From NCBI GenBank assembly GCA_045612465.1, contig JAZKZC010000059.1:1-38329 (forward strand): 38,329 bases of DNA, written 5' to 3'. The stretch is from Eubacteriales bacterium (GTDB taxonomy: Bacteria; Bacillota; Clostridia; Oscillospirales; CAG-272). The position numbers were made by a program, and so were the translations under genes. Below are positions 6,446 to 28,086 of the stretch, in pieces. Within the stretch, counting starts at the first letter, position 1. Each line of letters starts with the position of its first letter. Under the pieces are notes generated by a model that did not search any database, was not told where the DNA came from, and worked only from the letters and a program-made list of their open reading frames with translations.

Positions 6446-6448
6446 AAA

Positions 6449-6486
6449 TAAAAAGATATGAGATTTTGTAGCTCATATCTTTTTTT
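6449..6486. terminator. Bidirectional hairpin terminator between convergent genes
   Basis: aaaagatatgag / ctcatatctttt stem flanked by an A-run and a T-run. It lies between the stop at 6445 (+) and the stop at 6493 (-). Confidence 0.7.
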
Positions 6487-6492
6487 GACTTA

Positions 6493-6858: not shown

Positions 6859-6869
6859 TTTATCTTCCT

Positions 6870-7865
6870 TTATTTTTTTGATGAAAAATGCACAAGATGA
6901 GCTATGGCGGGGATAGTTTCGCCTTGAAATACCGTAAGCGGGCTCATAAGCGCACCCGTGCCGATAAAAAGCACGTCGTTTAATTTTCCGTTTCTGAAAT
7001 TATCCGCAATATACGAGCAAAGCACCGCCGCGCCGCATCCGCAACCGCTTCCGCCTGCGTGGACGTCCTGCCTTTCGCGGTCGTATATCATAAGTCCGCA
7101 GTCGTTATATATCCTTGAAATGTCGTAATGTTTTTCTTTCATAAGGTCTTTCAGTATTTCAGAACCCTCAAAACCGAGGTCGCCCGTTACGATAAGGTCA
7201 AAATCGTTCGGCGCGCTTCCCGTGGACTTAAAAAACTCATACAAAGTATTGTACGCCGCAGGCGCCATCGCCGCCCCCATATTGTTTATGTCGTTTATTC
7301 CCGCGTCAAATATCCTGCCGGGGGCGGTATGGCAAACGTACATATAAGACTCCCCGACTGACAGTATCATACTTGCCGCCGCCGTCACAGTGCGCTGGGA
7401 GGTGGGTGTGCGCTGTCCGCCGTATTCGACGGGGAAACGGAACTGTCTTTCCGCAGTGCAGTTGTGCGATGCGGCGCATGCCGCCGCGGTTTTGAAATTT
7501 CCGCCGCTTATTGCAAGCGCGCCGAGTATTACCGCCTCCGCCATTGTGGAGCAGGCACCGTAAAGTCCGAAATACGGGACGTTCGTGTCAGCAAGTCCGT
7601 AAGCGGAAGCCGTGCATTGGTTCATAAGGTCGCCTGCAAATATTGCTTCAACGCCGCCCGATACGATACCCGCATTGTCAAGCGCGTTGTTGTACGATAT
7701 GCGTACCATTTCCGCTTCGCTTTTTTCCCACGTTTTCATCCCGAAACGATCGTCATCGCTGTGAAATGAAAAATAACCTCCTAACGGACCGTCAAATTCT
7801 TCTTTTCCGACTGCATTGCCAACCCCCGAAACGCACGGGGGATTTTTTATCTTTATTACACTCAC
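6870..7865 (-). CDS. spoVAD: Stage V sporulation protein AD (thiolase-fold SpoVAD)
   Basis: Its thiolase-like sequence (GKEEFDGPLGGYF...WEKSEAEM...GDLMNQC...GACSTMAE) matches my recollection of SpoVAD. I place the start at GTG 7865, 8 nt after AAGGAG. The ORF-track ATG at 7946 would overlap spoIIID. Confidence 0.8.
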   Translation of the reverse strand: MSVIKIKNPPCVSGVGNAVGKEEFDGPLGGYFSFHSDDDRFGMKTWEKSEAEMVRISYNNALDNAGIVSGGVEAIFAGDLMNQCTASAYGLADTNVPYFGLYGACSTMAEAVILGALAISGGNFKTAAACAASHNCTAERQFRFPVEYGGQRTPTSQRTVTAAASMILSVGESYMYVCHTAPGRIFDAGINDINNMGAAMAPAAYNTLYEFFKSTGSAPNDFDLIVTGDLGFEGSEILKDLMKEKHYDISRIYNDCGLMIYDRERQDVHAGGSGCGCGAAVLCSYIADNFRNGKLNDVLFIGTGALMSPLTVFQGETIPAIAHLVHFSSKK

Positions 7866-12612: not shown

Positions 12613-12709
12613 TGATGAATTGTTTACGCTTTGAAAGGTTGTTTGTTAATATTTGTAATATATAATGGTACGTATCATTACTTATAACATCATTATATTG
12701 GGGTAAATT

Positions 12710-13570
12710 ATGAGCCTTTTTAAAAAAGTCTACAAATCCTTTGTCATCAGCGCGCTCGTTATTGCGGGTGCTCTTTCCGTGGCAAGGATATTCATTATGA
12801 ATTATTTTTACGAACCGAGTCTTCAGAATTATAAGACTACGACAAGTATGCCTACGCTTTACAGCATTTTGCTTATAATCTGCTGTGTTGCTTTGTTTTC
12901 GGTGTATTTCTTCATTAAACCGCCGAAAAAGAGCGCGGTCATACCTCAAAGCACTGTATCATCGCTTTTTGCATCGTCGCTTTGCGGATTCTTCTTCATT
13001 TCGTCGTTGTTCCTCGTTATTTATATAAACTTTGACTTTTTCACAGGCGGCGGTCTGAAACTGGCTTGGAGCAGAGGCGAAAAGATAGAGATAATATCGT
13101 TTATCTCAACTCTCGTTCTTTCACTTCCCGCCGCAGGCTTCTTCCTGAAAGCGGAATCTACAAAGAACGAAGACGATATGGCGGTGAAGGTGTTGTCGTT
13201 CTTCCCCGTGCTTTGGTGCATTTCGTACCTTATATACCTCTATTTTGAAAATTCCGTTGTAATAAACAATTCCGAAAAGATGTGCGCACAGCTTTCAGTC
13301 ATATTCCTTATGCTCTACCTCACGTCCGAGGCAAAGTACAGAATAACAAGACCGAAGCATCATTTGCACCTTGCGCTGTCGCTTGTAACTATCGTTGTGA
13401 CGGCGACGTACTGCATACCTAACCTTATACTCACGGTAATGCTCGTGCTTCCGTTCGATACGTTTTCCGTATACAGCGGTCTTCAAGTTGCACTTCTGCT
13501 TTACGCCGTTATAAGAACGTTCCAGTTCGCATCTCCCAAGGTGCCTGAAACTGCAGTGGAAAACGCTTAA
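12710..13570 (+). CDS. Polytopic membrane protein, function unknown
   Basis: 286 aa with about 8 hydrophobic segments. I recognise no motifs. A terminator follows. Confidence 0.7.
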   Translation: MSLFKKVYKSFVISALVIAGALSVARIFIMNYFYEPSLQNYKTTTSMPTLYSILLIICCVALFSVYFFIKPPKKSAVIPQSTVSSLFASSLCGFFFISSLFLVIYINFDFFTGGGLKLAWSRGEKIEIISFISTLVLSLPAAGFFLKAESTKNEDDMAVKVLSFFPVLWCISYLIYLYFENSVVINNSEKMCAQLSVIFLMLYLTSEAKYRITRPKHHLHLALSLVTIVVTATYCIPNLILTVMLVLPFDTFSVYSGLQVALLLYAVIRTFQFASPKVPETAVENA

Positions 13571-13594
13571 AAGCATTATACTTTCGCAATATCT

Positions 13595-13623
13595 AAAAAC
13601 CTTCCTTACAAAGGAGGGTTTTT
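13595..13623 (+). terminator. Rho-independent terminator
   Basis: aaaaaccttcctt-aca-aaggagggttttt followed by T-rich sequence. Confidence 0.7.
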
Positions 13624-13646
13624 GTGCTTTTAGGGTATATAAAATA

Positions 13647-13675
13647 TTGACATTTAAGGTATTTTTATGTATAAT
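13647..13675 (+). promoter_or_regulatory. Sigma-A promoter of the radical SAM operon
   Basis: TTGACA (13647-13652), a 17-nt spacer, then TATAAT (13670-13675). The ORF-track ATG at 13667 sits inside this promoter, so it is unlikely to be the start codon. Confidence 0.55.
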
Positions 13676-13711
13676 ATTATATGTAATAAATATAATCGGA
13701 GAAGTAGTGCT

Positions 13712-15577
13712 TTGAATCAGAAATATAACGTTGACGGTATTTTACGAAAGGTTTTGAAGCCCGGCAGATATACGGGCGGTGAATACGGTCAGATAATAAA
13801 AAACAAAGAAAACGTAAAGTGCAGATTTGCTTTTGCGTTTCCCGACACTTACGAAATAGGAATGTCGAATCTCGGCGTGCGTATTCTTTACGGTGCGCTC
13901 AATGCAAACGAAAATATCTGGTGTGAGCGTGTGTATGCCCCGTGGATGGATATGCAGGAGCAGATGAAAAAACACGGTATACCGCTTTATGCGCACGAAA
14001 GTATGGACCCCGTTTCGGAATTTGACATTCTCGGCTTTACACTTCAGTACGAGCTTTGTTATTCAACCGTTTTGAATATGCTTGAGCTTTCAGGTATGCC
14101 GCTTTACGCAAAGGACAGAGGCGAGGAATATCCGATAGTCATTGGCGGAGGCCCCTGCGCTTACAATGCGGAGCCTGTTGCTGACTTTTTCGACGTTTTT
14201 TCGATAGGAGAGGGCGAAGAAGCGCTCGTTGAATTTTGTGAGCTTTACATTAAAATGAAAGAGTCGGGCGATTATACCAAAGAGAAGTTTTTGCATGAAG
14301 CGGCAAAAATCGAGGGATTTTACGTTCCGTCTTTGTATGACGTTTCATATAATGACGACGGCACGGTGAAAGAGTATACTCCGAAGTATGACGATATACC
14401 GACGAAAATACGTAAGCGCATAATCAAAGACCTTGATAAAACGTATTTTCCCGAGCAGTTTGTTATGCCGTACATCGAGACGGTGCACGACAGAATAGTA
14501 CTTGAGGTGTACCGCGGTTGTCCCAGAGGCTGCCGTTTCTGTCAGGCGGGTATGATATACCGCCCTGCACGCGCAAAGTCACCCGACGTGCTGAACCGCG
14601 ACGCAAAAACGCTTTACGAAAACACGGGATATGATGAAATTTCGCTTTGCTCGCTTTCAATTTCGGACTATCCGCATATAAGAGAGCTGACAGACAAGCT
14701 GCTTGACTGGACAGATGATAAAATGGTCGGTCTTTCGCTTCCGTCAATGAGAGCGGACAGCTTCTCGCGTGAGCTTATGAAAAGGGTGTCATCCGTCCGC
14801 GCATCGGGCCTTACGTTTGCACCCGAAGCGGGAACACAAAGACTGCGTGATGCAATAAACAAAAATATCTGCGAAAAGGATATATTTGAAGCGTGCCGCG
14901 CCGCATTCGAGGGCGGACGCAATCAGGTGAAGCTGTACTTTATGTGCGGACTTCCCACGGAAACCGACGAGGATATTTTAGGAATTGAAAAGCTTGCAAA
15001 GGCTGTTGTCGATGAATATTATCAGACAGAAAACAGACCTAAAGGACGTCCTACGGTTACAATAAGCGTTGCTTGCTTCATACCGAAGCCGTTTACTCCT
15101 TTCCAATGGGACAGACAGGCAACGATGGAGGAGCTTGTTGAAAAGCAGAAGCTTCTTGCTGATGCCATTACCGACAGAAGCATAAAGTATAACTACCACG
15201 ATGCAAACGTCAGCAGGATAGAGGCGGTGTTTGCAAGAGGTGACAGACGTTTGTCGAAAGCTCTTGCAAAGGCATCGGAATACGGATTTAAATTTGATGC
15301 GTGGGACGAATGCTTTGACTATGACAAATGGTTGTCAGTATTTGAAGAATGCGGCATCGACCCGTCATTCTATGCGAACCGTGAGTTTGGCGAGGACGAG
15401 GTACTGCCGTGGGATATTATCGACTGCGGTGTATCAAAGGAATTTTTCCTGCGTGAGCGTCACAAGGCATATAACGATACCGTTACGGAAAACTGTATGA
15501 AATCGTGTGCCGCCTGCGGCGCAAATAAATTGGGAGGTGAATGCACATGGTGTCCGTCAACGAATACGAAAAAGTAA
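13712..15577 (+). CDS. B12-binding-domain radical SAM protein of the TIGR03960 type (function unknown)
   Basis: Contains the CxxxCxxC cluster motif YRGCPRGCRFCQAG and an N-terminal FAFPDTYEIGMSNLG region typical of this family. I propose the in-frame TTG at 13712, downstream of GGAGAAG, as the start. The start is uncertain; the frame and stop are firm. Confidence 0.8.
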   Translation: MNQKYNVDGILRKVLKPGRYTGGEYGQIIKNKENVKCRFAFAFPDTYEIGMSNLGVRILYGALNANENIWCERVYAPWMDMQEQMKKHGIPLYAHESMDPVSEFDILGFTLQYELCYSTVLNMLELSGMPLYAKDRGEEYPIVIGGGPCAYNAEPVADFFDVFSIGEGEEALVEFCELYIKMKESGDYTKEKFLHEAAKIEGFYVPSLYDVSYNDDGTVKEYTPKYDDIPTKIRKRIIKDLDKTYFPEQFVMPYIETVHDRIVLEVYRGCPRGCRFCQAGMIYRPARAKSPDVLNRDAKTLYENTGYDEISLCSLSISDYPHIRELTDKLLDWTDDKMVGLSLPSMRADSFSRELMKRVSSVRASGLTFAPEAGTQRLRDAINKNICEKDIFEACRAAFEGGRNQVKLYFMCGLPTETDEDILGIEKLAKAVVDEYYQTENRPKGRPTVTISVACFIPKPFTPFQWDRQATMEELVEKQKLLADAITDRSIKYNYHDANVSRIEAVFARGDRRLSKALAKASEYGFKFDAWDECFDYDKWLSVFEECGIDPSFYANREFGEDEVLPWDIIDCGVSKEFFLRERHKAYNDTVTENCMKSCAACGANKLGGECTWCPSTNTKK

Positions 15578-17759: not shown

Positions 17760-18419
17760 GTGGCTGAAGGACACAGAGAAAGAGTAAAAAGAAGATTTCT
17801 TTCCGAAGATCTTGATACCTTCGAAGCGCACAACGCCCTTGAATTTCTGCTGTTCTATGCGTTGCCGAGGATAGATACAAACGGTATTGCACACAGTCTT
17901 ATTGACAGATTCGGTTCTTTTTCCGAGGTGCTTGAAGCTCCTCTTGATGAACTTGCAAGCGTTGACGGAGTCGGCGAAAACGCGGCGATATTTCTGAAGC
18001 TTTTACATTCGACGGTAAGATATTATGAAAACGACGTCGGCAGACGTTCGCAGGAGTCGTTTGACAGCAAAGACGCAATAGGTAAATTTCTTATTGAAAA
18101 GTTCGCAGGAGAGGAAAACGAAAAGGTCATACTTTTGCTTCTTGATAATAAGGGCGGACTGATAGAAGCGAGGGTGCTTCACGAGGGTTCGGTAAATTCA
18201 TCCGCGGTAAACGTAAGGCGGATAACTGAAACTGCGCTTTTGAGCAGAGCATCGTCGGTTGTCATTGCACATAACCATCCGCGCGGTATCGCTTTCCCGT
18301 CGGCAGACGATATTTCGGTAACGGAAGCCATACGTCGCGCGCTTATGCTCGTTGACATAAATCTTCTTGACCATTATATCGTAGCGGGAAATAATTACAT
18401 CAGGCTGTCAGATACCTGA
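17760..18419 (+). CDS. radC: RadC-like JAB/MPN domain protein (UPF0758)
   Basis: The C-terminal JAMM-type motif VIAHNHPRG...PSADD and an N-terminal helix-hairpin-helix region (ELASVDGVGENAA) are present. GTG start. Confidence 0.85.
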   Translation: MAEGHRERVKRRFLSEDLDTFEAHNALEFLLFYALPRIDTNGIAHSLIDRFGSFSEVLEAPLDELASVDGVGENAAIFLKLLHSTVRYYENDVGRRSQESFDSKDAIGKFLIEKFAGEENEKVILLLLDNKGGLIEARVLHEGSVNSSAVNVRRITETALLSRASSVVIAHNHPRGIAFPSADDISVTEAIRRALMLVDINLLDHYIVAGNNYIRLSDT

Positions 18420-18487
18420 TGAAAATAAATATTTACGTGATAAAGGGTAATATTATTTATTAATAAAAATAAAACGGAGAGGGAAAA

Positions 18488-18793
18488 ATGGGAAATATTT
18501 TATTGACTGTTCCCGAATTTTGTTTCACGGACTGGCAGGTGTGTCTGCTCGGTATAGGAACGGTATTCGTGGGACTTATCGGTGTTATCATCGCTTGTAT
18601 GATAATGGGTGCCGTTATTCCGAAGAAAAAGGATGACGGTGTAAAAGAAAACGAAGCGCCCGCAGGCGTGCAGAAAGCATCGGACGAAATTCCCGACAGG
18701 GAGGAATTTGTAGCGGCGGTATCAGCCGCACTTGCGGAGTATATGGGAGAGGACATAAACTCCTTCAGAATCGTATCTATCAAGAAAATATAA
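18488..18793 (+). CDS. oadG: Sodium-pump decarboxylase gamma subunit (OadG family)
   Basis: 101 aa with a single N-terminal TM helix, then [16 protein letters not shown], typical of OadG-like anchors. It is the first gene of the decarboxylase cluster. Confidence 0.75.
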
Positions 18794-18806
18794 AGGGGAA
18801 TTAAAA

Positions 18807-19142
18807 ATGAGAACTTTCAGAGTAAACGTAAACGGAAACACATACGAAATACAGCTTGAGGAAATATCACCATCCGAAATCAAAAACACACCCGCACAGA
18901 AGCCTGCACCCGCATCACAGCCCACAGGCGGAAAAGCGGTAAATGCACCCATTGCAGGTACGATACTTTCTGTGAATGTGTCATCGGGAAGCACTGTCAA
19001 GGCAGGCGACGTTCTTATGGTGCTTGAAGCGATGAAAATGGAAAATGAGATATGCGCTCCCTGCGACGGAACAGTGTCATCGGTTGCCGTGAGCAAGGGT
19101 ATGTCGGTTGCCTCGGGCGCACTGCTTTGCACGATAGGTTAA
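18807..19142 (+). CDS. Stand-alone biotin carboxyl carrier (biotinyl/lipoyl domain) subunit
   Basis: 111 aa with the biotinylation motif [10 protein letters not shown] and a Pro/Ala-rich linker ([11 protein letters not shown]). Confidence 0.85.
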
Positions 19143-19154
19143 GGTGTAGAAAAT

Positions 19155-20336
19155 ATGGATGCGCTTTTGAATTTTGCTAAAACCACAGGTTTTTTCGGCA
19201 TATCCGAGAAGCCGTTGGTTCTTGTAATGTACGTTATTGCGGGACTTTTGATATATCTTGCAATAGTTAAAAAATTTGAACCGCTTTTGCTTTTGCCCAT
19301 TGCGTTCGGCATGCTTCTTACGAATCTGCCGGGGGCGGAGCTTTACCACCCCGAAATATTCATCAATGAAACGGGACATATAAATTGGGGTATGTTTAAA
19401 GAGGGTGCAGCAGGACTTATCGACTACCTTTACCTCGGTGTCAAGCTCGGTATTTTCCCGTGCATCATATTCATCGGTGTCGGTGCAATGACGGATTTTG
19501 CACCGCTTATCGCGAATCCCAAGTCGCTCCTTTTAGGCGCGGCAGCCCAGATGGGCATATTCGTAACTTATATATTTGCACGTGTTTCGGGTATATTCAC
19601 ACCCGAACAGGCAGGCTCTATCGGTATTATCGGCGGTGCTGACGGCCCCACGGCGATATACACGGCAACGAAAATGTCGCCTGAGCTTTTAGGTTCTATT
19701 GCTATTGCGGCATACTGCTACATGGCGCTCGTTCCGTTTATCCAGCCGCCTATTATGAAGCTCCTTACAACGAAAAAGGAGCGTATGATAGAGATGAAAC
19801 AGCTCCGCGACGTGTCGAAAACGGAAAAAATAGTTTTCCCCATTGTGATAACCGTGTTCGTGTCGCTTCTCGTTCCGTCAGCGGCGGCGCTCATCGGCTC
19901 GCTTATGCTCGGTAACCTGCTTCGTGAATGCGGTGTTACCGAAAGACTCAGCAAGACGGTTCAGAATGAGCTTATGAATATCGTTACCGTATTCCTCGGT
20001 GTGTCAGTCGGTGCTACCGCCACGGCAGAACGCTTCTTGAACGTCGAAACACTCGCAATACTTCTTATGGGTGTTATAGCATTTGCAATAGGCACGGGAA
20101 GCGGTGTTCTCCTTGCTAAATTTATGAATCTGTTTTCCAAGAACAAGATCAATCCCCTCATCGGTTCGGCGGGTGTTTCCGCTGTTCCTATGGCGGCGCG
20201 TGTTTCGCAGAAGGTCGGTCAGGAGGCAAACCCCTCAAACTTCCTGCTTATGCACGCAATGGGACCGAACGTTGCGGGTGTTATAGGCTCCGCTATCGCC
20301 GCAGGCGTTCTTTTGCAGATACCCAATATGTTTTAA
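19155..20336 (+). CDS. oadB: Na+-translocating decarboxylase beta subunit
   Basis: 393-aa polytopic membrane protein with conserved blocks GADGPTAIY and [15 protein letters not shown], typical of OadB/GcdB/MmdB. Confidence 0.9.
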
Positions 20337-20355
20337 TTTGAAAGGGGTATAAAAT

Positions 20356-21771
20356 ATGGCTAAAAATCCGTTAAAAATAACAGATACCATACTTCGCGAT
20401 GCGCACCAGTCGCAAGCCGCAACGCGAATGAAAATAGAGGATATGCTCCCCGCTTGCGAGGTGCTTGACAAAATAGGCTTTTATTCGCTTGAATGCTGGG
20501 GCGGTGCGACGTTTGATTCCTGTATGCGCTTCTTGAATGAAGACCCGTGGGAAAGACTCCGCACACTTCGCAAGGCTCTGCCGAATACGAAGCTGCAGAT
20601 GCTTCTGCGCGGACAGAATCTGCTCGGCTATAAGCACTACGCCGACGATACGGTTGAAGCTTTTGTCAAAAAGTCAATCGAAAACGGTATTGATATAATC
20701 AGAATATTCGATGCGCTCAACGATATAAGAAATATCGAAGCGGCAATGAAATTCACAAAGCAGTACGGCGGTACGGTCGAGGCGGCGATAAGCTATACTA
20801 CGAGCCCCGTCCACAGCCACGAGTATTTTGTTGACCTTGCATGCCGTCTTGAGGAAAAGGGCGCAGATATAATCTGTATCAAGGATATGGCAAACCTGCT
20901 TTTGCCCTACGATGCGTATTCACTCGTAAAGGCTCTGAAAGAAAAAATATCAGTTCCGATACACTTGCATACGCATAATACGTCCGGTACGGGCGACATG
21001 ACGTATCTTATGGCGGCAATGGCAGGCGTTGATATAGTTGACACGGCGCTTTCTCCGCTTGCAAACGGCACGTCACAGCCTGCGACGGAGTCGCTTGTTG
21101 CAACGATGGCATCGACGGAGCGTGACACGGGACTCAGTCTTGAGCTTTTGAGTAATGCCGCGTCGCATTTCAGAGGCGTTGCGAAGAAGCTGAAGGAAAG
21201 CGGTTCGCTTGACCCCAAGGTGCTGAACGTTGACACAAACACGCTTTTGTATCAGGTTCCCGGCGGTATGCTTTCAAATCTTATCTCCCAGCTCAAGCAG
21301 GCAAATGCCGAAGATAAATATTACGAGGTTCTTGCGGAAATCCCCCGTGTGAGAAAGGATTTCGGTTATCCTCCGCTTGTAACGCCGACGAGCCAGATCG
21401 TAGGCTCGCAGTCCGTTCTCAACGTGCTTTCGGGCGAAAGATATAAGGTGTTCACCAAAGAGTCAAAGGGACTTTTAAAGGGTGAATACGGAAAGCTTCC
21501 GGGTGAGGTTAATGAGGAAGTACGTAAAAAGGCAATAGGTGATGAAGAAGTCATAACCTGCCGTCCTGCTGACCTTATCGCACCGGAGCTTGATAAGTAC
21601 AAAGAAGAAGCAAAGGAAATGGCAAAGTGCGAGGAGGACGTGCTTTCCTATGCGCTTTTCCCCAAGGTTGCAACGGATTTCTTTGAAAAAAGAGGAAAAA
21701 CGTCGAACACGGAGAACGAAGCGAAAAAAGATACAATAAGAGAAATATTCGTTCAAGATGTTTCTATATAA
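20356..21771 (+). CDS. oadA: Oxaloacetate decarboxylase alpha subunit, carboxyltransferase part only (HMGL-like + PYC_OADA, no biotinyl domain)
   Basis: ITDTILRDAHQSQAATRM...ECWGGATFD...IKDMANLL...HLHTHNTSG match the OadA / pyruvate carboxylase B carboxyltransferase domain. The protein ends without an AMKM motif. Confidence 0.9.
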   Translation: MAKNPLKITDTILRDAHQSQAATRMKIEDMLPACEVLDKIGFYSLECWGGATFDSCMRFLNEDPWERLRTLRKALPNTKLQMLLRGQNLLGYKHYADDTVEAFVKKSIENGIDIIRIFDALNDIRNIEAAMKFTKQYGGTVEAAISYTTSPVHSHEYFVDLACRLEEKGADIICIKDMANLLLPYDAYSLVKALKEKISVPIHLHTHNTSGTGDMTYLMAAMAGVDIVDTALSPLANGTSQPATESLVATMASTERDTGLSLELLSNAASHFRGVAKKLKESGSLDPKVLNVDTNTLLYQVPGGMLSNLISQLKQANAEDKYYEVLAEIPRVRKDFGYPPLVTPTSQIVGSQSVLNVLSGERYKVFTKESKGLLKGEYGKLPGEVNEEVRKKAIGDEEVITCRPADLIAPELDKYKEEAKEMAKCEEDVLSYALFPKVATDFFEKRGKTSNTENEAKKDTIREIFVQDVSI

Positions 21772-21774
21772 TAG

Positions 21775-21800
21775 TAAAGACAACCGAAAGGTTGTCTTTA
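21775..21800 (+). terminator. Rho-independent terminator of the decarboxylase cluster
   Basis: taaagacaacc-gaaa-ggttgtcttta lies directly after the stop codon. Confidence 0.7.
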
Positions 21801-21821
21801 CTGATTTTACAGGAGAAAAAA

Positions 21822-22259
21822 ATGAGATTCAGAGATAAACTTATAAGATTTATGTATGGCAGATACGGATACGACAAACTTTCGTTTTTTATGTTCTGCG
21901 TGTATTTTTCGGTTTTTGTTGTCAGGATGTTTCTTGCGTTCTCATCGTCAAAAACGGTGCAGATAATTTCGCTGTCGCTTTTGTTTTTCAGCTTTGCATT
22001 GCTTGCGCTTATAATTTTCAGATTTCTTTCGAAAAATATATATGCACGTCAAAGGGAAAATGCGGTGTATCTTAAGCTGTCAAAACCCGTCGGTGAATTT
22101 TTCAAAAGAACCTTTAACCGCGTAAAATATATAAAAACGCACCGTTACCGCAAATGTCCTCACTGTAAAAGTTTTTTGCGCTTGCCGAGAAAAAAAGGGA
22201 AACACACGGTCTTGTGCCCGCGTTGTAAGAAAAACTTTGACGTCAATATCATAATATAA
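21822..22259 (+). CDS. Membrane protein with C-terminal zinc-ribbon (CxxC...CxxC), function unknown
   Basis: Start at ATG 21822, after AGGAG. It has two TM helices, then CPHCKSFLRLPRKKGKHTVLCPRCKKNF. Confidence 0.65.
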   Translation: MRFRDKLIRFMYGRYGYDKLSFFMFCVYFSVFVVRMFLAFSSSKTVQIISLSLLFFSFALLALIIFRFLSKNIYARQRENAVYLKLSKPVGEFFKRTFNRVKYIKTHRYRKCPHCKSFLRLPRKKGKHTVLCPRCKKNFDVNIII

Positions 22260-22309
22260 CGGTTAAAACGGTTGAATATCAAAAAAAAATATTTTTTTTG
22301 AAAAAACTC

Positions 22310-22338
22310 TTGATTTTTTCGATTTGTTGTGATATAAT
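22310..22338 (+). promoter_or_regulatory. Sigma-A promoter of tRNA-Ser with upstream A/T tract
   Basis: TTGATT (22310-22315), a 17-nt spacer, then TG-a-TATAAT (22333-22338). It is preceded by an A9-TA-T8 tract (UP-element-like). It strongly resembles module R2 at 22690-22718. Confidence 0.6.
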
Positions 22339-22359
22339 ACACGAGTATTCAACCGATAT

Positions 22360-22450
22360 GGAGAAGTCGCCTAGTTGGTCGAGGGCGCACGACTGGAAAT
22401 CGTGTAACCGGTAAAACGGTTCCAGAGTTCGAATCTCTGCTTCTCCGCCA
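22360..22450 (+). tRNA. tRNA-Ser (anticodon GGA), long variable arm, CCA encoded
   Basis: Hand-folded cloverleaf:
- acceptor GGAGAAG/CTTCTCC
- anticodon stem-loop CACGA-CTGGAAA-TCGTG
- variable arm AACCG-GTAAAA-CGGTT
- T arm CAGAG-TTCGAAT-CTCTG. Confidence 0.9.
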
Positions 22451-22452
22451 AC

Positions 22453-22492
22453 AAAAAACGCACTTTTGTCTACTGACAAAGGTGCGTTTTTT
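22453..22492 (+). terminator. Rho-independent terminator of tRNA-Ser
   Basis: aaaaaacgcacttttgtc-tact-gacaaaggtgcgtttttt forms a long stem followed by a T-run. Confidence 0.8.
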
Positions 22493-22493
22493 G

Positions 22494-22667
22494 AATGATG
22501 TTTGCCTGTCACGCAAATGATGTTGGCTTCGCCAATGATGACGGCTTCGCCTAATGATGTGTGCCTGTGGGCACATAGGGACAAACAGCGCATCATTGCG
22601 GAATGAAGTGGAACAACATCATATTTGCGAAGCAAATGCATCATATCGCCGCAGGCGATGCATCATT
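22494..22667. repeat. Heptamer/hairpin array A: 4x AATGATG then 4x CATCAT(T), separated by short hairpins of differing sequence
   Basis: AATGATG occurs at 22494, 22516, 22534 and 22553. CATCAT(T) occurs at 22591, 22617, 22639 and 22661. Hairpins lie at 22501-22517, 22523-22535, 22560-22575, 22623-22637 and 22645-22659. Confidence 0.7.
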
Positions 22668-22673
22668 GAAGAC

Positions 22674-22744
22674 ATACAAGGCTTACGCCTTGATTTGTTT
22701 ACGATAGTGTGATATAATAAACTCACTGATAAATAAGAATTTGA
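22674..22744 (+). promoter_or_regulatory. Repeated promoter module, copy R2
   Basis: atacaaggc-ttac-gccTTGATT (-35 at 22690-22695), a 17-nt spacer, TG-a-TATAAT (22713-22718), then ctgataaataagaatttg, the same leader as R1. Confidence 0.6.
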
Positions 22745-22799
22745 CGAACTGTTCACAAGACTTGAATTGTTGAGAATATACTATTCTGAGGAGGATAAA

Positions 22800-23321
22800 A
22801 TGAAAACGATTGTGATTTATAATTCACAGACTGGATTTACAAAAAAATATGCTCAGTGGATAGCAGAAAAAGCACATGCAGATTGCATTGAGTACAGTAA
22901 AGCTAAAAATGCAGATATAGATAGCTATGATGCCGTAGTTTTTGGCGGCTGGGCTGTAGCTGGTTCAATAAGCAAACTCAAATGGTTTAAGAAAAATCTT
23001 TTGAGATGGAAGGATAAGAAACTGGTGGCTTTTTGTGTTGGCGCAAGTCCTATTGAGAACCCTGAAATTGAACTGACATTACCTAAAAACTTCTCAGAAG
23101 AAGAACTTAAAATAGTAAGATGGTTCTATTGCCCTGGTGGTCTTGATTACGAAAAGATGCCTGCCACATCAAAGGCAATGATGAAAATGTTTGTCAAGGT
23201 TTTGAAAGCCAAGAAAGATAAGACACAGGCTGATATTGAACAGATAAAAATGATGTCATCATCATATGATATTTCAAATATAAAATATATCGAACCGATA
23301 ATTGACTATCTTAATGGCTAA
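22800..23321 (+). CDS. Flavodoxin-like domain protein (Flavodoxin_5/HemG-like)
   Basis: Start at ATG 22800, after GAGGAGGA. MKTIVIYNSQTGFTKKYAQWIAEK is a typical FMN-binding flavodoxin N-terminus, and the sequence continues ...DAVVFGGW. AT-rich and CpG-poor. Confidence 0.85.
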   Translation: MKTIVIYNSQTGFTKKYAQWIAEKAHADCIEYSKAKNADIDSYDAVVFGGWAVAGSISKLKWFKKNLLRWKDKKLVAFCVGASPIENPEIELTLPKNFSEEELKIVRWFYCPGGLDYEKMPATSKAMMKMFVKVLKAKKDKTQADIEQIKMMSSSYDISNIKYIEPIIDYLNG

Positions 23322-23451
23322 ATACTTGTTTGTTCACAAGCAAAGCGGCTTGAGATTAACAAATTCCAATTTATCGAATGGGAACACTTGGTGTACTTTT
23401 AGTCGTTCTTACCTGCATTTACGCACCGTTTGTGCGCTTCTTCGCAGCGAA

Positions 23452-23480
23452 AGGAGCAAGTCATATGACTTGCTCTTTTT
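23452..23480 (+). terminator. Rho-independent terminator after the flavodoxin-like gene
   Basis: gagcaagtca-ta-tgacttgctc followed by ttttt. Confidence 0.75.
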
Positions 23481-23486
23481 GCAACT

Positions 23487-23632
23487 AAATCCACCCTTGC
23501 GGGTGGGTGAAATCATCTTCGATGATGAAATTCCCCACGGAAATGAAATCTGCCTCGACGGCGAATGGGTGGATTTAATTTCATCTGAAGCCGCAGGCTG
23601 AAGATTTCATCCGAATAAAGTGAGGATTTCAT
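23487..23632. repeat. Heptamer/hairpin array B: 3x RTGAAAT then 3x ATTTCAT with interleaved hairpins; inverted homologue of array C
   Basis: RTGAAAT occurs at 23507, 23525 and 23543. ATTTCAT occurs at 23578, 23604 and 23626. Hairpins include ccaccc-ttgc-gggtgg (23491-23506), catc-ttc-gatg (23514-23524) and tcc-ccac-gga (23532-23541). There is also a 10-bp long-range pair, aaatccaccc (23487) / gggtggattt (23567). Confidence 0.75.
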
Positions 23633-23677
23633 TTAATATACATGTCATATCTTAATTTATGATTATATTAAAAGATA

Positions 23678-23707
23678 TTGACATTTATTATATATTTATG
23701 ATATAAT
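23678..23707 (+). promoter_or_regulatory. Candidate sigma-A promoter of putP
   Basis: TTGACA (23678-23683), then TATAAT (23702-23707) after an 18-nt spacer. Confidence 0.5.
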
Positions 23708-23741
23708 ATACTATATTTAATTTCAATATGGAGGAAAAAAG

Positions 23742-25304
23742 ATGAATGACAAAATTCAAATTCTGATTGCAATGGTCATATATATGGCTGCAGTCATTAT
23801 GATCGGTGTATTCTGCGCAAAGCGTGCAAATAAAAATTCCGAAGCATATTTTCTCGGCGGACGTTCACTCGGCCCGTGGGTAACAGCAATGAGCGCTGAA
23901 GCATCCGATATGAGCGGTTGGCTTCTTATGGGCTTGCCCGGCGTCGCTTATTGGTGCGGTCTTGCCGATGCGGCATGGACGGCAATAGGTCTTGCGGTAG
24001 GTACATATCTTAACTGGCTTATCGTATCAAAGCGTTTAAGACGCTACAGTGTGAGGGCAAACAATTCCATCACGCTTCCCGATTTCTTTTCAAACCGTTT
24101 CAGAGAAAACAAGAAGCACATAATGCTCCTTTCCGCTGCATTTATACTTATATTCTTTACTGTATATGCGGCAAGCTGTTTTGTAACGTGCGGCAAGCTT
24201 TTCTCAACGCTGTTCGGTATGCCTTATCAGGCAATGCTTATTGTAGGCGCGGTATTCGTTCTTATTTACACGATACTCGGCGGTTTCTTGGCTGAAAGTA
24301 TTTCAGACTTTATGCAGGCTATCGTTATGATAGTTGCTCTTACCGTTATCGTTATAATCGGTATAGTTAACGCAGGCGGTATCGGCGCAATCGTCGAAAA
24401 CGCAAAGGCTATCCCCGGATTTTTCGAATTTTTCGGTCTTGCAACACCCGTTGTTGACGAAGCCGGCACACAGATTCTTGAAGCAGGTAAGCCTGTATTC
24501 GGAAACGCTGACGATTACGATGTTCTGAATATTTGCTCGATGATGGCGTGGGGTCTTGGTTACTTCGGTATGCCTCAGGTGCTTTTGCGCTTTATGGCTA
24601 TCCGTAAGGAAGAAGAACTCAAGCGTTCACGCAGAATTGCTATTGTATGGGTAGTTATCTCTCTTGCGGTTGCGGTGTTCATCGGTATCGTCGGACGTCA
24701 GCTGTTCCCCGATGCGCTTCTGACGAAGTCTGCGGCTGAAAGCATATTCATAACAATGGCAGAATCTTACTTGCCCCCCATTCTTGCAGGATTTGTAATG
24801 GCGGGAATTCTGGCGGCAACTATCAGCTCGTCCGACTCATATCTCTTGATTGCGGCATCTGCTTTTTCAAAGAATGTTTTCCAGGGCGTATTCAAGAAAA
24901 ATGCAAGCGACAAGCAGGTTATGAACGTTTCACGTATCACACTTCTTGCTCTTACTGCTATCGGTATTATCATAGCGCTTGATGAAAACAGCGTTATCTT
25001 TGATATAGTATCGTTTGCGTGGGCAGGATTCGGCGCAACATTCGGCCCGATAATGATATTCTCCCTTTTCTGGAAGCGTGTCAATAAGCCCGGTGCTGTT
25101 GCAGGTATGATAAGCGGTGCGGCAATGGTATTCTTCTGGAAGCTCGTGCTCAGCAAGATCGGCGGAGTATTCGCAATTTATGAGCTTCTTCCCGCGTTTA
25201 TATTCTCATCAATTTGCATCGTCGTCGTTTCGCTTCTTACAAAGGCTCCCTCGAAGGAGATCGAAGAAGATTTCGAGGCTGTACGCGCAGGCAAATGCGA
25301 ATAA
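23742..25304 (+). CDS. putP: Sodium/proline symporter (SSS family)
   Basis: 520 aa with about 13 TM segments. The N-terminal block YFLGGRSLGPWVTAMSAEASDMSGWLLMGLPG is characteristic of PutP. Confidence 0.9.
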   Translation: MNDKIQILIAMVIYMAAVIMIGVFCAKRANKNSEAYFLGGRSLGPWVTAMSAEASDMSGWLLMGLPGVAYWCGLADAAWTAIGLAVGTYLNWLIVSKRLRRYSVRANNSITLPDFFSNRFRENKKHIMLLSAAFILIFFTVYAASCFVTCGKLFSTLFGMPYQAMLIVGAVFVLIYTILGGFLAESISDFMQAIVMIVALTVIVIIGIVNAGGIGAIVENAKAIPGFFEFFGLATPVVDEAGTQILEAGKPVFGNADDYDVLNICSMMAWGLGYFGMPQVLLRFMAIRKEEELKRSRRIAIVWVVISLAVAVFIGIVGRQLFPDALLTKSAAESIFITMAESYLPPILAGFVMAGILAATISSSDSYLLIAASAFSKNVFQGVFKKNASDKQVMNVSRITLLALTAIGIIIALDENSVIFDIVSFAWAGFGATFGPIMIFSLFWKRVNKPGAVAGMISGAAMVFFWKLVLSKIGGVFAIYELLPAFIFSSICIVVVSLLTKAPSKEIEEDFEAVRAGKCE

Positions 25305-25450
25305 TTTAAAATATAATTTCAGCAGGAAACATTGTTTTCCTGCTGATTTTATGTTTTAGCGAATAATATTATCCCCGATAGACAAAAATCTGTCGGGGGT
25401 TTGACATTTTGGAAGTTGTATGGTAGAATAAAATCAAGGCGGTGAAATGT

Positions 25451-26986
25451 ATGAATAATAAAAAATTTCTCGGAATTGAATTCGGCTCAACAAGAATAAA
25501 GGCTGTCGCACTCGATTCCGAATATAAACCCGCATCAAGCGGTGATTACACGTGGGCAAGCTCATACGAAAACGGCATCTGGACATACGATGTTTCCAAG
25601 GTCTGGGACGGTCTTAAAACAGCACTGTCACAGATACAGGGCAGGGAAGATGTTTGTTATATGGGACTTTCGGGTATGATGCACGGATATCTCGTTTTTG
25701 ATGAGGATTGGAATTTACTCGTGCCTTTCAGAACGTGGCAGAATACGATAACAGCACCTGCGGCATATGAGCTTACAGAGCTTTTTAATTTCAATATTCC
25801 GCAAAGATGGTCGATAGCTCACTTGTATCAGGCTGTTTTGAACGGTGAGGAGCACGTTTCAAGGGTAGCGCACATAACAAGTCTTGCGGGGTACGTTCAC
25901 TATATGCTGACGGGTGTCAATGCCGTCGGTATAGGTGAGGCGTCGGGCATGTTTCCCGTGGACACCGAAAAGCTCTGCTATGATGAAAAAATGGTCGAAA
26001 AATTCAACAAGCTTGCAGAGGAAAAAAAGATACCGTGGAATCTTACGGATGTTTTGCCGAAGATACTCGTTGCGGGCGACAACGCAGGATATCTTACAAA
26101 AGAGGGCAGTAAGATGATAGACGGACTGTTGCCTGCGGGAATTCCGTTTGCGCCTCCCGAGGGCGACGGCGGCACGGGAATGATCGCAACGAATGCGGTA
26201 GCGCCGAGAACGGGAAATGTTTCGGCAGGTACGTCCATTTTTGCAATGGTCGTTATGGAAAAACCGCTTGAAAATGTGTATGAGGAAATAGATATTATCA
26301 CAACTCCAAGCGGAAAGAACGTCGCAATGGTTCACGGCAACAACTGCACTACGGATTCAAATGCGTGGGTATCTGTTTTGAAAGAATCCGCAGAACTGCT
26401 TGGGGCGAACGCTTCAAACGGCGACGTATATACGAAGCTTTACGAAAAATCGCTTGATGGTGATGCTGACTGCGGCGGTGTGCTTGTTTGTAATTACCTT
26501 GCGGGAGAGGTCATAACTCATATTGAAAACGGGCGTCCTTTGGTTGTGCGCCGTCCCGACAGTAAGTTTACACTTGCAAACTTTTTCAGATCTATTCTCT
26601 ATTCCACAATGGCGACATTGAAGCTCGGAATGGACATTCTTGAAAAGGAAGATGTAAAAATCGATTCTATGACAGGCCACGGCGGACTTTTCAAAACGCC
26701 AAAGGTCGGACAAACTTATATGTCGTGCGTGTGCTCGGGCGCACCTATAACCTGTATGAAAACGGCAGGAGAGGGCGGCCCTTACGGTATGGCACTTCTT
26801 GCCGCATACGCTTCTGATAAAGAAGACGGCGAAACACTTGAGGAGTATTTGAATAACCGTGTATTCAAGGATGCCGAGAGTGTAACCGTCAAAGCAAGCG
26901 ACGAGGATATCGACGGCTTTGGTAAATATATGGAAGAATATAAAAAGATGCTAAAGGTAGAACGCACAGCATCTGAAATGATTTAA
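25451..26986 (+). CDS. FGGY-family carbohydrate kinase (xylulokinase-like; substrate not assignable)
   Basis: Start at ATG 25451, 8 nt after AAGGCGG. LGIEFGSTRIKAV is the phosphate-1 motif of the sugar-kinase/actin fold, and a GHGGLF block lies near the C-terminus. Confidence 0.85.
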   Translation: MNNKKFLGIEFGSTRIKAVALDSEYKPASSGDYTWASSYENGIWTYDVSKVWDGLKTALSQIQGREDVCYMGLSGMMHGYLVFDEDWNLLVPFRTWQNTITAPAAYELTELFNFNIPQRWSIAHLYQAVLNGEEHVSRVAHITSLAGYVHYMLTGVNAVGIGEASGMFPVDTEKLCYDEKMVEKFNKLAEEKKIPWNLTDVLPKILVAGDNAGYLTKEGSKMIDGLLPAGIPFAPPEGDGGTGMIATNAVAPRTGNVSAGTSIFAMVVMEKPLENVYEEIDIITTPSGKNVAMVHGNNCTTDSNAWVSVLKESAELLGANASNGDVYTKLYEKSLDGDADCGGVLVCNYLAGEVITHIENGRPLVVRRPDSKFTLANFFRSILYSTMATLKLGMDILEKEDVKIDSMTGHGGLFKTPKVGQTYMSCVCSGAPITCMKTAGEGGPYGMALLAAYASDKEDGETLEEYLNNRVFKDAESVTVKASDEDIDGFGKYMEEYKKMLKVERTASEMI

Positions 26987-26990
26987 ACAA

Positions 26991-27018
26991 AAAAGGAACA
27001 CTGTGAGGTGTTCCTTTT
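26991..27018. terminator. Hairpin terminator (A-run/T-run flanked) after the kinase gene
   Basis: aaaaggaacac-tgtgag-gtgttcctttt. Confidence 0.75.
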
Positions 27019-27189
27019 GAATTTAACCGACATTTATTCGCAAAACGGTATTTTGTCTTCCTCGTTCTTTGCAGGATTTTGTTTAATACCCAACTGTGTT
27101 TTCGTAAATTGTCAATACTCAACATGATATTAATTTTAATATTTAGAGCCTGTATATACTCGGTATTTAAATGATGATCAAGCATGACA

Positions 27190-27762
27190 CTAATTACTGT
27201 CTGCAATGCGAAGACCGTGCATTTTTGCGGCGTACTTTAATTCGTACACTGTATCTGTTTCGCTTGCCTTTGATATACTGATCAACTCTTTTTTTGCTTC
27301 CTCTACAGAAGTGTAAAAACCGAGTAAGGTCTTTTTATTCATTCCGAGAATACCTTTTGAAATGCCGTAAAGTGCACATACCGGTATTCTCACTTTTTCA
27401 TTAGGCTTGGTTGCTCCTGAAATTAAAGTGGCTTCACCTTTGCCGTCGCTGACCATTTCGATTAAAAATTCTTCAAATGTCGACAGCTTTCTTTTGTTGA
27501 TATCAATAATATACAGTTTTTTATTGGTGTGAATACTTTGTTGGGCGGGTTGATCGAAGCTTGTTTCTTCACCTTTAACAAGATAATCGGTTGAGACTTT
27601 AAACAGTTCACTTATAAGTACAAGCTTCTCAATGTCTGGGGTACTGGCTCCGCTTTCCCATTTTGATACCGCCTGCCGGGATACTTCTAATTTTTCTGCA
27701 AGCTGTTCTTGGGACAATCCGTTACTTTTTCGTAACTGTTGAATTTTTACAGAAATACTCAT
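27190..27762 (-). CDS. XRE-family HTH transcriptional regulator with an uncharacterised ~110-aa C-terminal domain
   Basis: Start at ATG 27762, directly after AAAGGAGG. IQQLRKSNGLSQEQLAEKLEVSRQAVSKWESGASTPDIEKLVLISELFKVSTDYL is a canonical HTH_3 domain. AT-rich. The ORF-track start at 27909 lies upstream of the predicted promoter. Confidence 0.85.
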   Translation of the reverse strand: MSISVKIQQLRKSNGLSQEQLAEKLEVSRQAVSKWESGASTPDIEKLVLISELFKVSTDYLVKGEETSFDQPAQQSIHTNKKLYIIDINKRKLSTFEEFLIEMVSDGKGEATLISGATKPNEKVRIPVCALYGISKGILGMNKKTLLGFYTSVEEAKKELISISKASETDTVYELKYAAKMHGLRIADSN

Positions 27763-27888
27763 AATAAATCCTCCTTTGGGATTACTGCAGAAACATTTTA
27801 ACATATGATTAGCATAAAGTCTACCATTTGAGCGTGGAATAACGGCAACTGACGGTTGCATTTCGGTCGTGCTGTCGGAGTTTGTGAA

Positions 27889-27935
27889 TTTATACCATAT
27901 TTCTGCCAATAAATCAAGGTGCCTTGTATATCATC
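27889..27935 (-). promoter_or_regulatory. Repeated promoter module, copy R3 (minus strand)
   Basis: The minus strand reads gatgatatacaaggca-ccTTGATT (-35 = 27912-27917), a 17-nt spacer, then TGG-TATAAA (27889-27894). It is homologous to R1 and R2 but lacks their gataaataagaattt leader. Confidence 0.55.
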
Positions 27936-27957: not shown

Positions 27958-28085
27958 GTGAAATATTCGGCGATGCCGAATGTGAAATTAAATCCACCCA
28001 TCCGCCTTCGAGGCGGATTTCACCCAACGAAGTTGGATTTCATCGTCGAAGACGATTTCACCCACCCGCAAGGGTGGATTTAATT
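27958..28085. repeat. Heptamer/hairpin array C (inverted copy of array B)
   Basis: On the + strand, GTGAAAT occurs at 27958 and 27982, and ATTTCAC/T at 28017, 28037 and 28055. Hairpins:
- attcggc-gat-gccgaat (27965-27981)
- tccgcct-tcg-aggcgga (28001-28017)
- ccaac-gaa-gttgg (28024-28036)
- cgtc-gaa-gacg (28044-28054)
- ccaccc-gcaa-gggtgg (28062-28077). Confidence 0.75.
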
Positions 28086-28086
28086 G

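Follow-up and report, generated by a model that had tools for sequence, protein, structure and literature searches.

A Gut-1-like array of words and hairpins behind a tRNA-Ser terminator belongs to a conserved repeat family that is widespread in gut Clostridia

Gut-1 is an RNA candidate that was found in human gut metagenomes (Weinberg et al. 2010, PMC2864571). Rfam lists it as a small RNA (sRNA) with covariation, and its consensus consists of three units, each made of the heptamer GUGAAAU and a variable hairpin with a CUUCG loop (RF01706). In the published seed, arrays of GUGAAAU and GUGAUAU follow a tRNA and a predicted terminator, and reversed words occur in the flank (PMC2864571). Gut-1 has been an orphan motif since 2010 and is rarely named in the full-text literature. 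Here we analyze an array of similar build, array A, in 38,329 nucleotides (nts) of DNA from a Eubacteriales bacterium of the GTDB lineage Oscillospirales; CAG-272 (contig JAZKZC010000059.1, positions 1 to 38,329, assembly GCA_045612465.1); this whole stretch is called the window. A first-pass annotation, made from the sequence of the window, had described array A and held that no known element had its grammar. That claim was wrong, because Gut-1 in Rfam (RF01706) is a constant heptamer alternating with variable hairpins. Array A is a member of a repeat family that is conserved and widespread in gut Clostridia; it is not Gut-1 by Rfam score and by its word, and it is Gut-1-like by grammar and context.

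Array A occupies the 174 bp from 22494 to 22667. Its left arm (22494..22575, plus strand) contains four copies of the word AATGATG (at 22494, 22516, 22534, and 22553), each followed by a hairpin (HP): HP1 at 22501-22517 (TTTGC/GCAAA), HP2 at 22523-22535 (TTGGC-ttc-GCCAA), the weak HP3 at 22541-22552, and HP4 at 22560-22575 (TGTGCC-tgtg-GGCACA). The right arm (22591..22667) contains four copies of CATCAT(T) (at 22591, 22617, 22639, and 22661), which read ATGATG on the minus strand, together with the imperfect HP5 (22598-22616), HP6 (22623-22637, ATTTGC-gaa-GCAAAT), and HP7 (22645-22659, ATCGCC-gca-GGCGAT). The hinge between the arms, TAGGGACAAACAGCG (22576..22590, plus strand), is a diverged version of the family center GGCAAACATCG, which is complementary to GATGTTTGCC (the first word together with the HP1 5' arm). 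The start-to-start spacing of the words is 22, 18, 19, 38, 26, 22, and 22 bp. The mini-hairpin motif GCGAAGC occurs three times, on the minus strand of HP2 and HP3 and on the plus strand of HP6, and the related CCGCAGG occurs once, on the plus strand of HP7. The mirror halves that the first-pass annotation had described, four forward words and then four reverse words, were found at all eight of its coordinates; the five hairpins that it had named are all present, and the two remaining spacers proved to be the weak HP3 and the imperfect HP5.

The hexamer ATGATG occurs 43 times in the window, versus 23.2 ± 5.0 times in shuffled sequences. Eight of the 43 are inside array A, where the 35 copies outside it predict about 0.16 per 174 bp (the Poisson probability of eight or more is of the order of 1e-11). 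The first-pass annotation would have counted it against the array if the words were as dense in shuffled DNA or if the region were an assembly artifact. Neither is so: the words exceed the shuffles, and because more than 120 independent assemblies have the same architecture, array A is not an artifact. Folded with RNA parameters, the whole array forms a single long branched hairpin, with energies of −73.9 kcal/mol for the plus strand (z, −5.8 versus shuffles) and −60.7 kcal/mol for the minus strand (z, −3.1). With DNA parameters the strands are about equal (plus, −39.3 kcal/mol, z of −3.7; minus, −37.3 kcal/mol, z of −3.9). The ladder-like pairing of forward with reverse words, also foreseen in the annotation, was chosen both by the single-sequence fold and by RNAalifold.

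Other identities for array A were rejected. There was no Rfam match at an E value of ≤10, which excludes a known RNA family, and a plasmid or phage origin was excluded by the lack of a blastn match and by the finding that only three IMG/VR contigs are carriers. Array A is not coding: neither the reading MMFACHANDVGFANDDGFA nor a 52-amino-acid open reading frame (ORF) at 22554-22712 has a ribosome-binding site. A longer minus-strand ORF (22279..22644) crosses the tRNA-Ser gene and, as the annotation had judged, is not credible as coding.

The conservation of the array was determined from two scans. We scanned 185,579 species genomes for three AATGATG words 9 to 20 nt apart, a search for word arrays in other genomes that the first-pass annotation had advised, and obtained at least 120 loci. 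About a quarter of these were Clostridia with the array A architecture; the rest were coding repeats or heptamer microsatellites. A scan of metagenomes used the center GGCAAACATCG, and because it selected this motif, conservation of the center in the metagenome copies is by construction. All copies collected were among the matches listed. Together the scans gave at least 130 arrays, 121 of them distinct, from metagenome-assembled genomes (MAGs) of Clostridia and from gut and rumen metagenomes. The carriers include Oscillospiraceae, Ruminococcus, Faecousia, Christensenella, and Faecalibacterium, and one of them is a cultured strain, Faecalibacterium langellae CNCM I-4541 (L083). Copies with 4 + 4 words are the commonest (45), followed by those with 4 + 3 (28), 3 + 3 (14), and 3 + 4 (13); the lower word counts are mostly due to point-mutated words.

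The family has a polar order: terminator, word, HP1 (TTTGCC/GGCAAA), HP2, HP3, HP4 (TGTGCC/GGCACA), center, and three hairpins with CATCAT between them. The grammar that had been read from array A, a constant word, variable but position-specific hairpins, mirror halves, and triloops closed by C-G, is conserved in the 121 copies with compensatory stems. Thus, 45 copies have 11 different stems at HP2, 10 at HP4, and 13 at HP7, and these compensatory changes are specific to position. When chimeras were made from the 5' half of one copy and the 3' half of another, the stem was kept in only 13 to 33%. These per-position stem and chimera analyses replaced RNAalifold on MAFFT columns, which is unsuited to local hairpins because they differ in length and misalign. 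Copies within a contig, of which there are up to three, are more alike than copies from different genomes. The summed metagenome depth at the array is 10 to 100 times that of the neighboring gene, and metagenome assemblies break at the array. Viral contigs with an array are rare (3 of the 2.9 million in IMG/VR).

A few copies have unusual arrangements. One IMG/VR contig (L255:1-1170) has one Gut-1-type and three A-type arrays in 1.2 kb, the densest cluster seen, and two of these arrays flank a single small gene. At another locus (L026:250-560), an A-type array lies between terminators and convergent copies of a tRNA-Ser 3' end, which gives a large perfect dyad. At L111 and L095, the second left unit, TCGTTTCACT, is exactly complementary to the fifth right unit, AGTGAAACGA, and neither unit is a local hairpin; this 10-nt arm-to-arm match is additional to the words and favors ladder pairing in those copies.

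The window itself contains two arrays that Rfam recognizes as Gut-1. Array B (23482-23632), together with its terminator B (23454-23480), occupies 23454..23632 on the plus strand and scores 62.3 bits at 23482-23554; its word is G/ATGAAAT. Array C is at 27960-28086 on the minus strand and scores 79.4 bits at 28012-28086. The same model had no match in 21800-23400, the region of array A, either at an E value of ≤10 or at the gathering score (50 bits). The Gut-1 linker words GUGAAAU and GUGAUAU do not occur in array A, and the array A word, AAUGAUG, is one or two substitutions away. On the other hand, array A has the Gut-1 pattern of at least three variable hairpins flanked by the same heptamer, in HP1 to HP4 of the left arm and, on the minus strand, in the right arm, and the family is found in the Gut-1 setting, in gut Clostridia straight after a terminator or tRNA.

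Arrays B and C are also two-armed, although the Rfam model spans one arm only, and in both the first word plus the HP1 5' arm (AATTAAATCCACCC / AACTAAATCCACCC) is complementary to the center GGGTGGATTTAATT. Other loci have further or mixed words. A hybrid array (L119) has GTGAAAT units and then AATGATG units, another locus (L258) has a GTGAAG/CTTCAC array, and a relative of the window (L250) has ATGAAG/CTTCAT at the orthologous tRNA-Ser site. The core words across the arrays are TGATG (array A), TGAAG, TGAAA, and TGATA, with four copies per arm. Because the outer A and T of the heptamer close flush hairpins, the common single-stranded core is TGAWR. Each change of the core word is a single step, and it is always shared by the two arms. 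These comparisons of words and layouts indicate that the array A family is a sister of Gut-1 and continuous with it; the present Rfam model misses the AATGATG variant.

The place of the arrays is as well conserved as their form is. "Hairpin just upstream" describes 99 of the 103 copies (96%; stems of at least 6 bp), with a T-tail in 86 and an A-tract in 87, and the array starts one base after the terminator. In the window, the bidirectional intrinsic terminator A (22452..22493) consists of an A-tract, a 19-bp stem with the top CTTTTGTC-N4-GACAAAG, and TTTTTTG, and the base right after its end is the first base of array A, 22494. The upstream transcription unit is the gene for tRNA-Ser (GGA) at 22360..22450 on the plus strand (found by ARAGORN; 56.4 bits with the Rfam tRNA model; aligned with a relative, L249). 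Among the 95 copies whose upstream sequence is long enough, 49 (52%) have a same-strand tRNA gene within 75 nt upstream, and 27 kinds of tRNA are represented; many copies without a tRNA have a conserved tail, GGTGTACTTTTAG, about 100 nt upstream.

Downstream, a strong σ70-type promoter on the plus strand lies within 60 nt in 50 of 113 copies (44%), versus 2 in shuffles, and its −35 box often abuts the last word. No strong minus-strand promoter (score of ≥10) is aimed at the array in any of the 113 copies, which excludes a minus-strand sRNA that shares the bidirectional terminator. In the window, 10 bp separate the end of array A (22667) from the start of a small hairpin, CAAGGCTTACGCCTTG, in the promoter region (22677..22718, plus strand). 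The 3' arm of this hairpin runs into the −35 box TTGATT (22690-22695), and a TG-extended −10 box, TATAAT, is at 22713-22718. Because array A is behind a strong terminator and ahead of a promoter, there is little support for the earlier suggestions that it is a read-through trailer of the tRNA or a 5' element of the flavodoxin-like gene downstream.

The stems and loops bear on whether the array works as DNA or as RNA. Structured RNAs have several percent G·U pairs, and A·C pairs are much rarer in them. The stems of the 121 copies have 2,582 Watson-Crick pairs, 9 G·T pairs, and 11 A·C pairs, so that G·T is 0.35% of the total. This near absence of wobble pairs is evidence against RNA; it also makes the G·U test uninformative as to which strand folds. 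Both strands are preserved as perfect palindromes. The loops, in contrast, are asymmetric. Loops of the form G..A occur on the CATCAT strand in 170 of 222 cases in the left arm, 63 of 104 in HP4, and 88 of 150 in the right arm, versus 0, 0, and 3 cases, respectively, on the opposite strand. The closing pair is C-G in 81 to 95%, and the bias flips strand at the center. The few internal mismatches, G·A and G·G, are also on the CATCAT strand.

Such loops are well known in DNA. C-GNA-G on G-C pairs (GCGNAGC or CCGNAGG) is an extraordinarily stable mini-hairpin motif (PMC13037366, PMC3201870), and it occurs in single-strand initiation sites and in promoters of the hairpin type (PMC13037366). In array A it is found at 22523-22535 and 22541-22552 on the minus strand and at 22623-22637 and 22645-22659 on the plus strand, and the bias is family-wide. 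Because the stems are compensatory with hardly any G·T, the C-GNA-G loops are on the CATCAT strand, and no promoter feeds the array, we favor the view that the array works at the DNA level.

A second orphan occurs next to the arrays. Of the 68 copies with a callable downstream ORF, 26 (38%) have a gene of family PF05635 (23S_rRNA_IVP; 97 to 100 bits) there; the neighbors share the sequence MKENKLA.LSM.FSV.IINLVK...ISNQIGRSG and encode small, Avd-like four-helix-bundle proteins. The retroelement protein Avd is a member of PF05635 (PMC10053308). The remaining neighbors are a mixed set of accessory genes (GNAT, XRE, FMN reductase, GDSL lipase, chromate transporter, and others). Avd binds nucleic acid, and in rRNA intervening sequences, inverted repeats at the two ends pair into a long stem that encloses a PF05635-type ORF; we know of no function for PF05635 proteins outside diversity-generating retroelements. 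When two loci were picked from viral contigs by PF05635 homology alone, both had the order tRNA, terminator, two-armed array, and gene. In a tree of 42 PF05635 proteins, all 30 that are linked to TGATG fell into one clade (98/99 support) and those linked to TGAAG or TGAAA fell outside it, a result that may partly reflect relatedness, most copies having been fetched by the ATGATG word or the center motif. Between L250 and L253, close relatives that have their arrays at one and the same tRNA-Ser site, the word and the PF05635 clade differ together.

PF05635 genes are also flanked by tandem heptamers without hairpins in MAGs of Verrucomicrobiaceae (L116:1719-2850), Chloroflexaceae (L110, minus orientation, 5770-6930), and Bacteroidia (L049:2590-3521), where the words are GAATGAT/GAAGGAT, GAATGGT, and AATGATG/AATGGTG. 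At L116 and L110 the heptamers form forward and reverse-complement arms, and those of L116 have the ORF between them, much as an rRNA intervening sequence does. Because such arms occur without hairpins, the hairpins of the Clostridia arrays may be compact spacers that bring the words together. Many "microsatellite" matches from the AATGATG scan may be members of this wider class of PF05635-associated heptamers.

The tRNA-Ser locus was compared with its orthologs, which were located via proteins 86 to 97% identical to the α subunit of the window's oxaloacetate decarboxylase (OAD). In this comparison, also advised by the first-pass annotation, the array grammar recurs at the site, and array A itself is absent from the closest relative. 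In that relative, L249 (OAD α, 97%), the tRNA-Ser gene is followed by terminator B, array B (Gut-1), and an SSF gene, without array A and the flavodoxin-like gene. In L250 (96%) it is followed by a window-type terminator, the ATGAAG array, a promoter, and a PF05635 gene; in L251 (90%), by Gut-1 arrays on either side of a gene for 128 amino acids; and in L253 (86%), by an A-type array, a promoter, and a PF05635 gene. The extra block in the window versus L249, at about 22451-23448, comprises terminator A, array A, the promoter module, the flavodoxin-like gene, and a 3' tail, whereas in L249 the module of terminator B and array B directly follows the tRNA. Because the closest relative lacks array A and the flavodoxin-like gene together, array A appears to be the tRNA-side end of an inserted islet of about 1 kb.

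The tail of the islet (23390..23447, plus strand) runs from GGTGTACTTTTAG (23390-23402), which is also found 0.5 to 1.9 kb downstream of arrays at other loci, through GCTTCTTCGCAG (23436-23447). The latter forms the right border of the block and is a degenerate direct repeat, with 11 of 12 aligned bases, of the last 12 nt of the tRNA-Ser gene (GCTTCTCCGCCA, 22439-22450, plus strand). A better repeat is found at L166 (minus orientation, 12640-14331), where the order is tRNA-Ser, terminator, array, PF05635 gene, GNAT gene, tail, terminator, second array, 18-nt repeat, third terminator, and decayed array. The repeat is a perfect copy of the tRNA-Ser 3' end and bounds the PF05635 and GNAT islet, so that this block looks like an islet integrated into a tRNA end. 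A general att-type duplication of the tRNA end was rejected, having been seen at 1 of 40 loci.

The cargo of the window's islet, the flavodoxin-like gene (22800..23321, plus strand; PF12724, 69.6 bits), occupies the position at which 26 of 68 copies carry PF05635. It behaves as a traveling accessory gene. A piece containing it (22737-23379) recurs at about 99% identity in gut metagenomes (bovine, goat, and others), in contigs without the window's upstream genes, and homologs that are 79% identical are on small elements with Mob_Pre, TnpV, and integrase genes (L125-L128). The arrays are not obligatory borders of this cassette, as the homologs at L121-L128 have none. The arrays do mark hot spots where gut Clostridia swap small accessory genes, here a flavodoxin that is also on mobilizable elements. 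The promoter at 22677..22718 is that of the flavodoxin-like gene and is part of a promoter and leader module that is much repeated in gut metagenomes (repeat D1). The module proper, the promoter with the first ~35 nt of the leader (22694-22753), has a summed gut-metagenome depth of 523 to 3,485, versus 6 to 20 for the gene; many contigs part from the window sequence exactly at 22743-22749, and related modules are behind arrays in L020, L130, and L251. On the other side of the tRNA-Ser gene, between it and the decarboxylase α gene, is a 155-amino-acid ORF (21792-22259) with no Pfam family and weak zinc-ribbon-like matches at its C terminus; its position is conserved in relatives (146 to 166 amino acids, L249-L251).

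We tentatively favor, as a reading that falls a little short of probable, that array A is a two-fold symmetric platform of words between extrudable mini-hairpins, acting at the DNA level and read by a PF05635 protein, and that this orphan copy stands at the end of its islet that faces the tRNA. The duplex would open or extrude and the hairpins would fold, most stably on the CATCAT strand with its C-GNA-G mini-hairpin loops. Folding would set the repeated words side by side, or would pair words across the arms, and the result would be a symmetric platform between the upstream terminator and the next promoter. The likeliest reader of the words would be an Avd-like PF05635 protein, which here would act in trans. 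The array would have come in, or would be lost, together with its own terminator, promoter module, and flavodoxin-like gene as the islet of about 1 kb, lodged between the tRNA-Ser 3' end and the resident terminator. The complex may control or insulate the promoter or may be a cis site for movement of the islet.

Several findings weigh against this reading. The window has no PF05635 gene, and elsewhere the link between PF05635 and the array seems to be one of position only. The protein-only sample consists of two related loci, and the sampling of the copies by word or center, noted above, bears on the clade result. There was no recombinase or transposase among the 35 non-PF05635 downstream ORFs, and a clean repeat of the tRNA 3' end was seen at only 1 of 40 loci. 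Word spacing varies from 17 to 26 bp in the family, and rigid binding to one face of a duplex is therefore ill suited. Some of the evidence points toward RNA: in 9 of 12 copies the plus strand has the lower energy of the two when RNA parameters are used, in 28 of 45 copies two pairs that extend a helix are U·G, and pieces of arrays are present in metatranscriptome contigs, which have no direction and possibly include DNA, so that there may be some read-through transcription of the array.

Of the other explanations, a selfish, nonautonomous mobile repeat, similar to a miniature inverted-repeat transposable element (MITE), a REPIN, or an integron attC site, is unlikely but deserves serious consideration. 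An enzyme acting in trans would recognize the arms in their folded form and target the 3' side of terminators and tRNA genes, the repeat would have no host function, and PF05635 would be a passenger or helper. This explanation overlaps with, and does not exclude, the DNA platform that we favor. It would account for the multiple copies (up to three per contig), their high summed depth and the breaks in assemblies, the greater similarity of copies within contigs, the presence or absence and the swapping of arrays and cargo at one tRNA-Ser site in close relatives, the perfect 18-nt repeat that bounds the L166 islet, and the diversity of the accessory cargo. However, the array ends have no target-site duplication, there is no transposase, integrase, or HUH gene beside any copy examined, the clean tRNA repeat is confined to 1 of 40 loci, and only 3 of 2.9 million viral contigs have an array; in addition, position-specific conservation with compensation over many species suggests selection on structure. 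Even less can be said for an att-site arm region, an explanation to which we give hardly any credence. The words would be the arm-type sites of a tyrosine integrase responsible for inserting the islet at the tRNA-Ser 3' end, as might be expected of direct and then inverted repeats spaced by ~20 bp that adjoin a tRNA 3' end, with a copy of that end at the far border (11 of 12 bases in the window and 18 of 18 in L166). But 27 different tRNAs plus many non-tRNA terminators are used, no integrase is nearby, compensatory hairpins have no role in arm-type sites, and arrays also occur at sites without cargo (L249).

The catalog entry for Gut-1 suggests a structured RNA, either a read-through trailer or an sRNA, whose single-stranded heptamers bind protein or RNA; we judge this improbable for array A. 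The Rfam listing with covariation, the plus-strand fold (z, −5.8) and its greater stability in 9 of 12 copies, and the helix extensions by U·G (28 of 45 copies) are all consistent with it. So are two kinds of plus-strand loop, the UGCG tetraloops of HP4 (31 of 104 copies) and the GNRA loops of some right-arm hairpins. The RNA data are unstranded Logan contigs only, and in these, metatranscriptome pieces that span the terminator and the first unit have depths of 90 to 168. Nevertheless, the array-to-gene depth ratio in RNA runs is no higher than in DNA runs (the contigs are undirected and DNA is possible). The array is one base behind a strong terminator, the next promoter is downstream, and strong minus-strand promoters number 0 of 113. 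G·T is no commoner than A·C in the stems, and a single transcript fails to explain why the asymmetry of loops and mismatches flips at the center. A passive boundary, which we regard as more improbable still, would need no dedicated protein: extrudable palindromes between an active tRNA unit and a promoter would absorb supercoiling, stop polymerases, or block exonucleases. The array is always behind a bidirectional terminator and often behind a tRNA gene (49 of 95), a strong promoter is next in 44% with the −35 box often abutting the last word, and both DNA strands fold well, all as a boundary would have it. This leaves unexplained why the words are invariant and uniform within an array and change in concert in both arms between arrays, why particular hairpins follow a polar order, and why there is a link to PF05635.

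A broader version of the DNA platform reading is speculative, and we doubt that it will hold as a whole. The arrays, both Gut-1 and the word variants, and the stand-alone PF05635 proteins might be a single undescribed system, in which a PF05635 pentamer would read TGAWR between DNA mini-hairpins and so mark out a new type of gene cassette, one that carries a promoter and homes to the junction between a stable-RNA gene or a terminator and the adjoining flank. The logic would be like that of integrons, with another site, another partner, and a catalytic enzyme yet to be found. In any case, two orphans, Gut-1 and PF05635, appear as neighbors in one module, and both are made testable by the change of the word with the protein clade, by the DNA-type signatures of the hairpins, and by the fixed place between terminator and promoter.

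Among known repeat systems, the array family shares features with several and coincides with none of those compared here. Like repetitive extragenic palindromes (REPs), bacterial interspersed mosaic elements, and REPINs, which are thought to act as folded single-stranded DNA, it is extragenic and multicopy, has units of a short word plus a hairpin in inverted pairs, and is often behind terminators. Unlike REPs, its words are constant and its palindromes variable, which is the reverse arrangement: REP-type elements have a conserved palindrome, with a short conserved word on its 5' side, in near-identical dispersed copies, and the array palindromes differ both within and between arrays. No REP-associated tyrosine transposase (RAYT) or HUH gene is present among the 35 downstream ORFs. 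Inverted ends are present (I5, I8), as in MITEs; unlike in MITEs, the flanks of 45 copies showed no consistent target-site duplication. Iteron or parC-type repeats do not fit, because only 5 to 7 nt per unit are conserved and the spacing is uneven (18 to 38 bp). Integron attC sites resemble the arrays in their imperfect palindromes, with free sequence and kept structure, in their short conserved heptamer boxes, in being read as folded single strands, and in their place at the borders of single-gene cassettes that lack their own recombinase. They differ in having two pairs of boxes, versus eight words in the array. In the present case the cassettes have a promoter and a terminator of their own, IntI was not found, and the junction versus L249 is at the terminator edge, outside the array. 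The attC boxes RYYYAAC/GTTRRRY are absent from array A, whose ends are AATGATG and CATCATT, and there is no integrase among the nine Pfam-scanned neighboring ORFs (17760-27909).

The closest likenesses are to three systems. Mini-hairpin DNA (GCGNAGC / GCGNNAGC; phage G4-type origins, ssiA, and N4 promoters) has the C-GNA-G triloops that dominate the array family, and its known sites are folded single-stranded DNA bound by proteins (PMC13037366). Each of those sites, however, is a lone hairpin in an origin or promoter of a phage or plasmid, whereas array A is a chromosomal series of seven hairpins with a repeated word between them. The 23S rRNA intervening-sequence proteins and Avd share PF05635, which is behind 38% of the arrays, and at L116 the ORF lies between mirror-image heptamer arms; in contrast to those systems, the arrays have no reverse transcriptase, template or variable repeats, or rRNA gene, the Clostridia arrays have both arms upstream of the gene's promoter, and the window lacks a PF05635 gene. 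Gut-1, finally, shares with array A the constant heptamer with three to four variable hairpins and loops of the C-UUC-G type, the occurrence in gut Clostridia with a tRNA or terminator directly 5', and the reversed second arm, which is in the flanks of the published seed. It differs from array A in that the array A word is AAUGAUG and has no Rfam match, and in that Rfam describes a one-armed sRNA, whereas the present data point to a two-armed DNA element with a link to PF05635.

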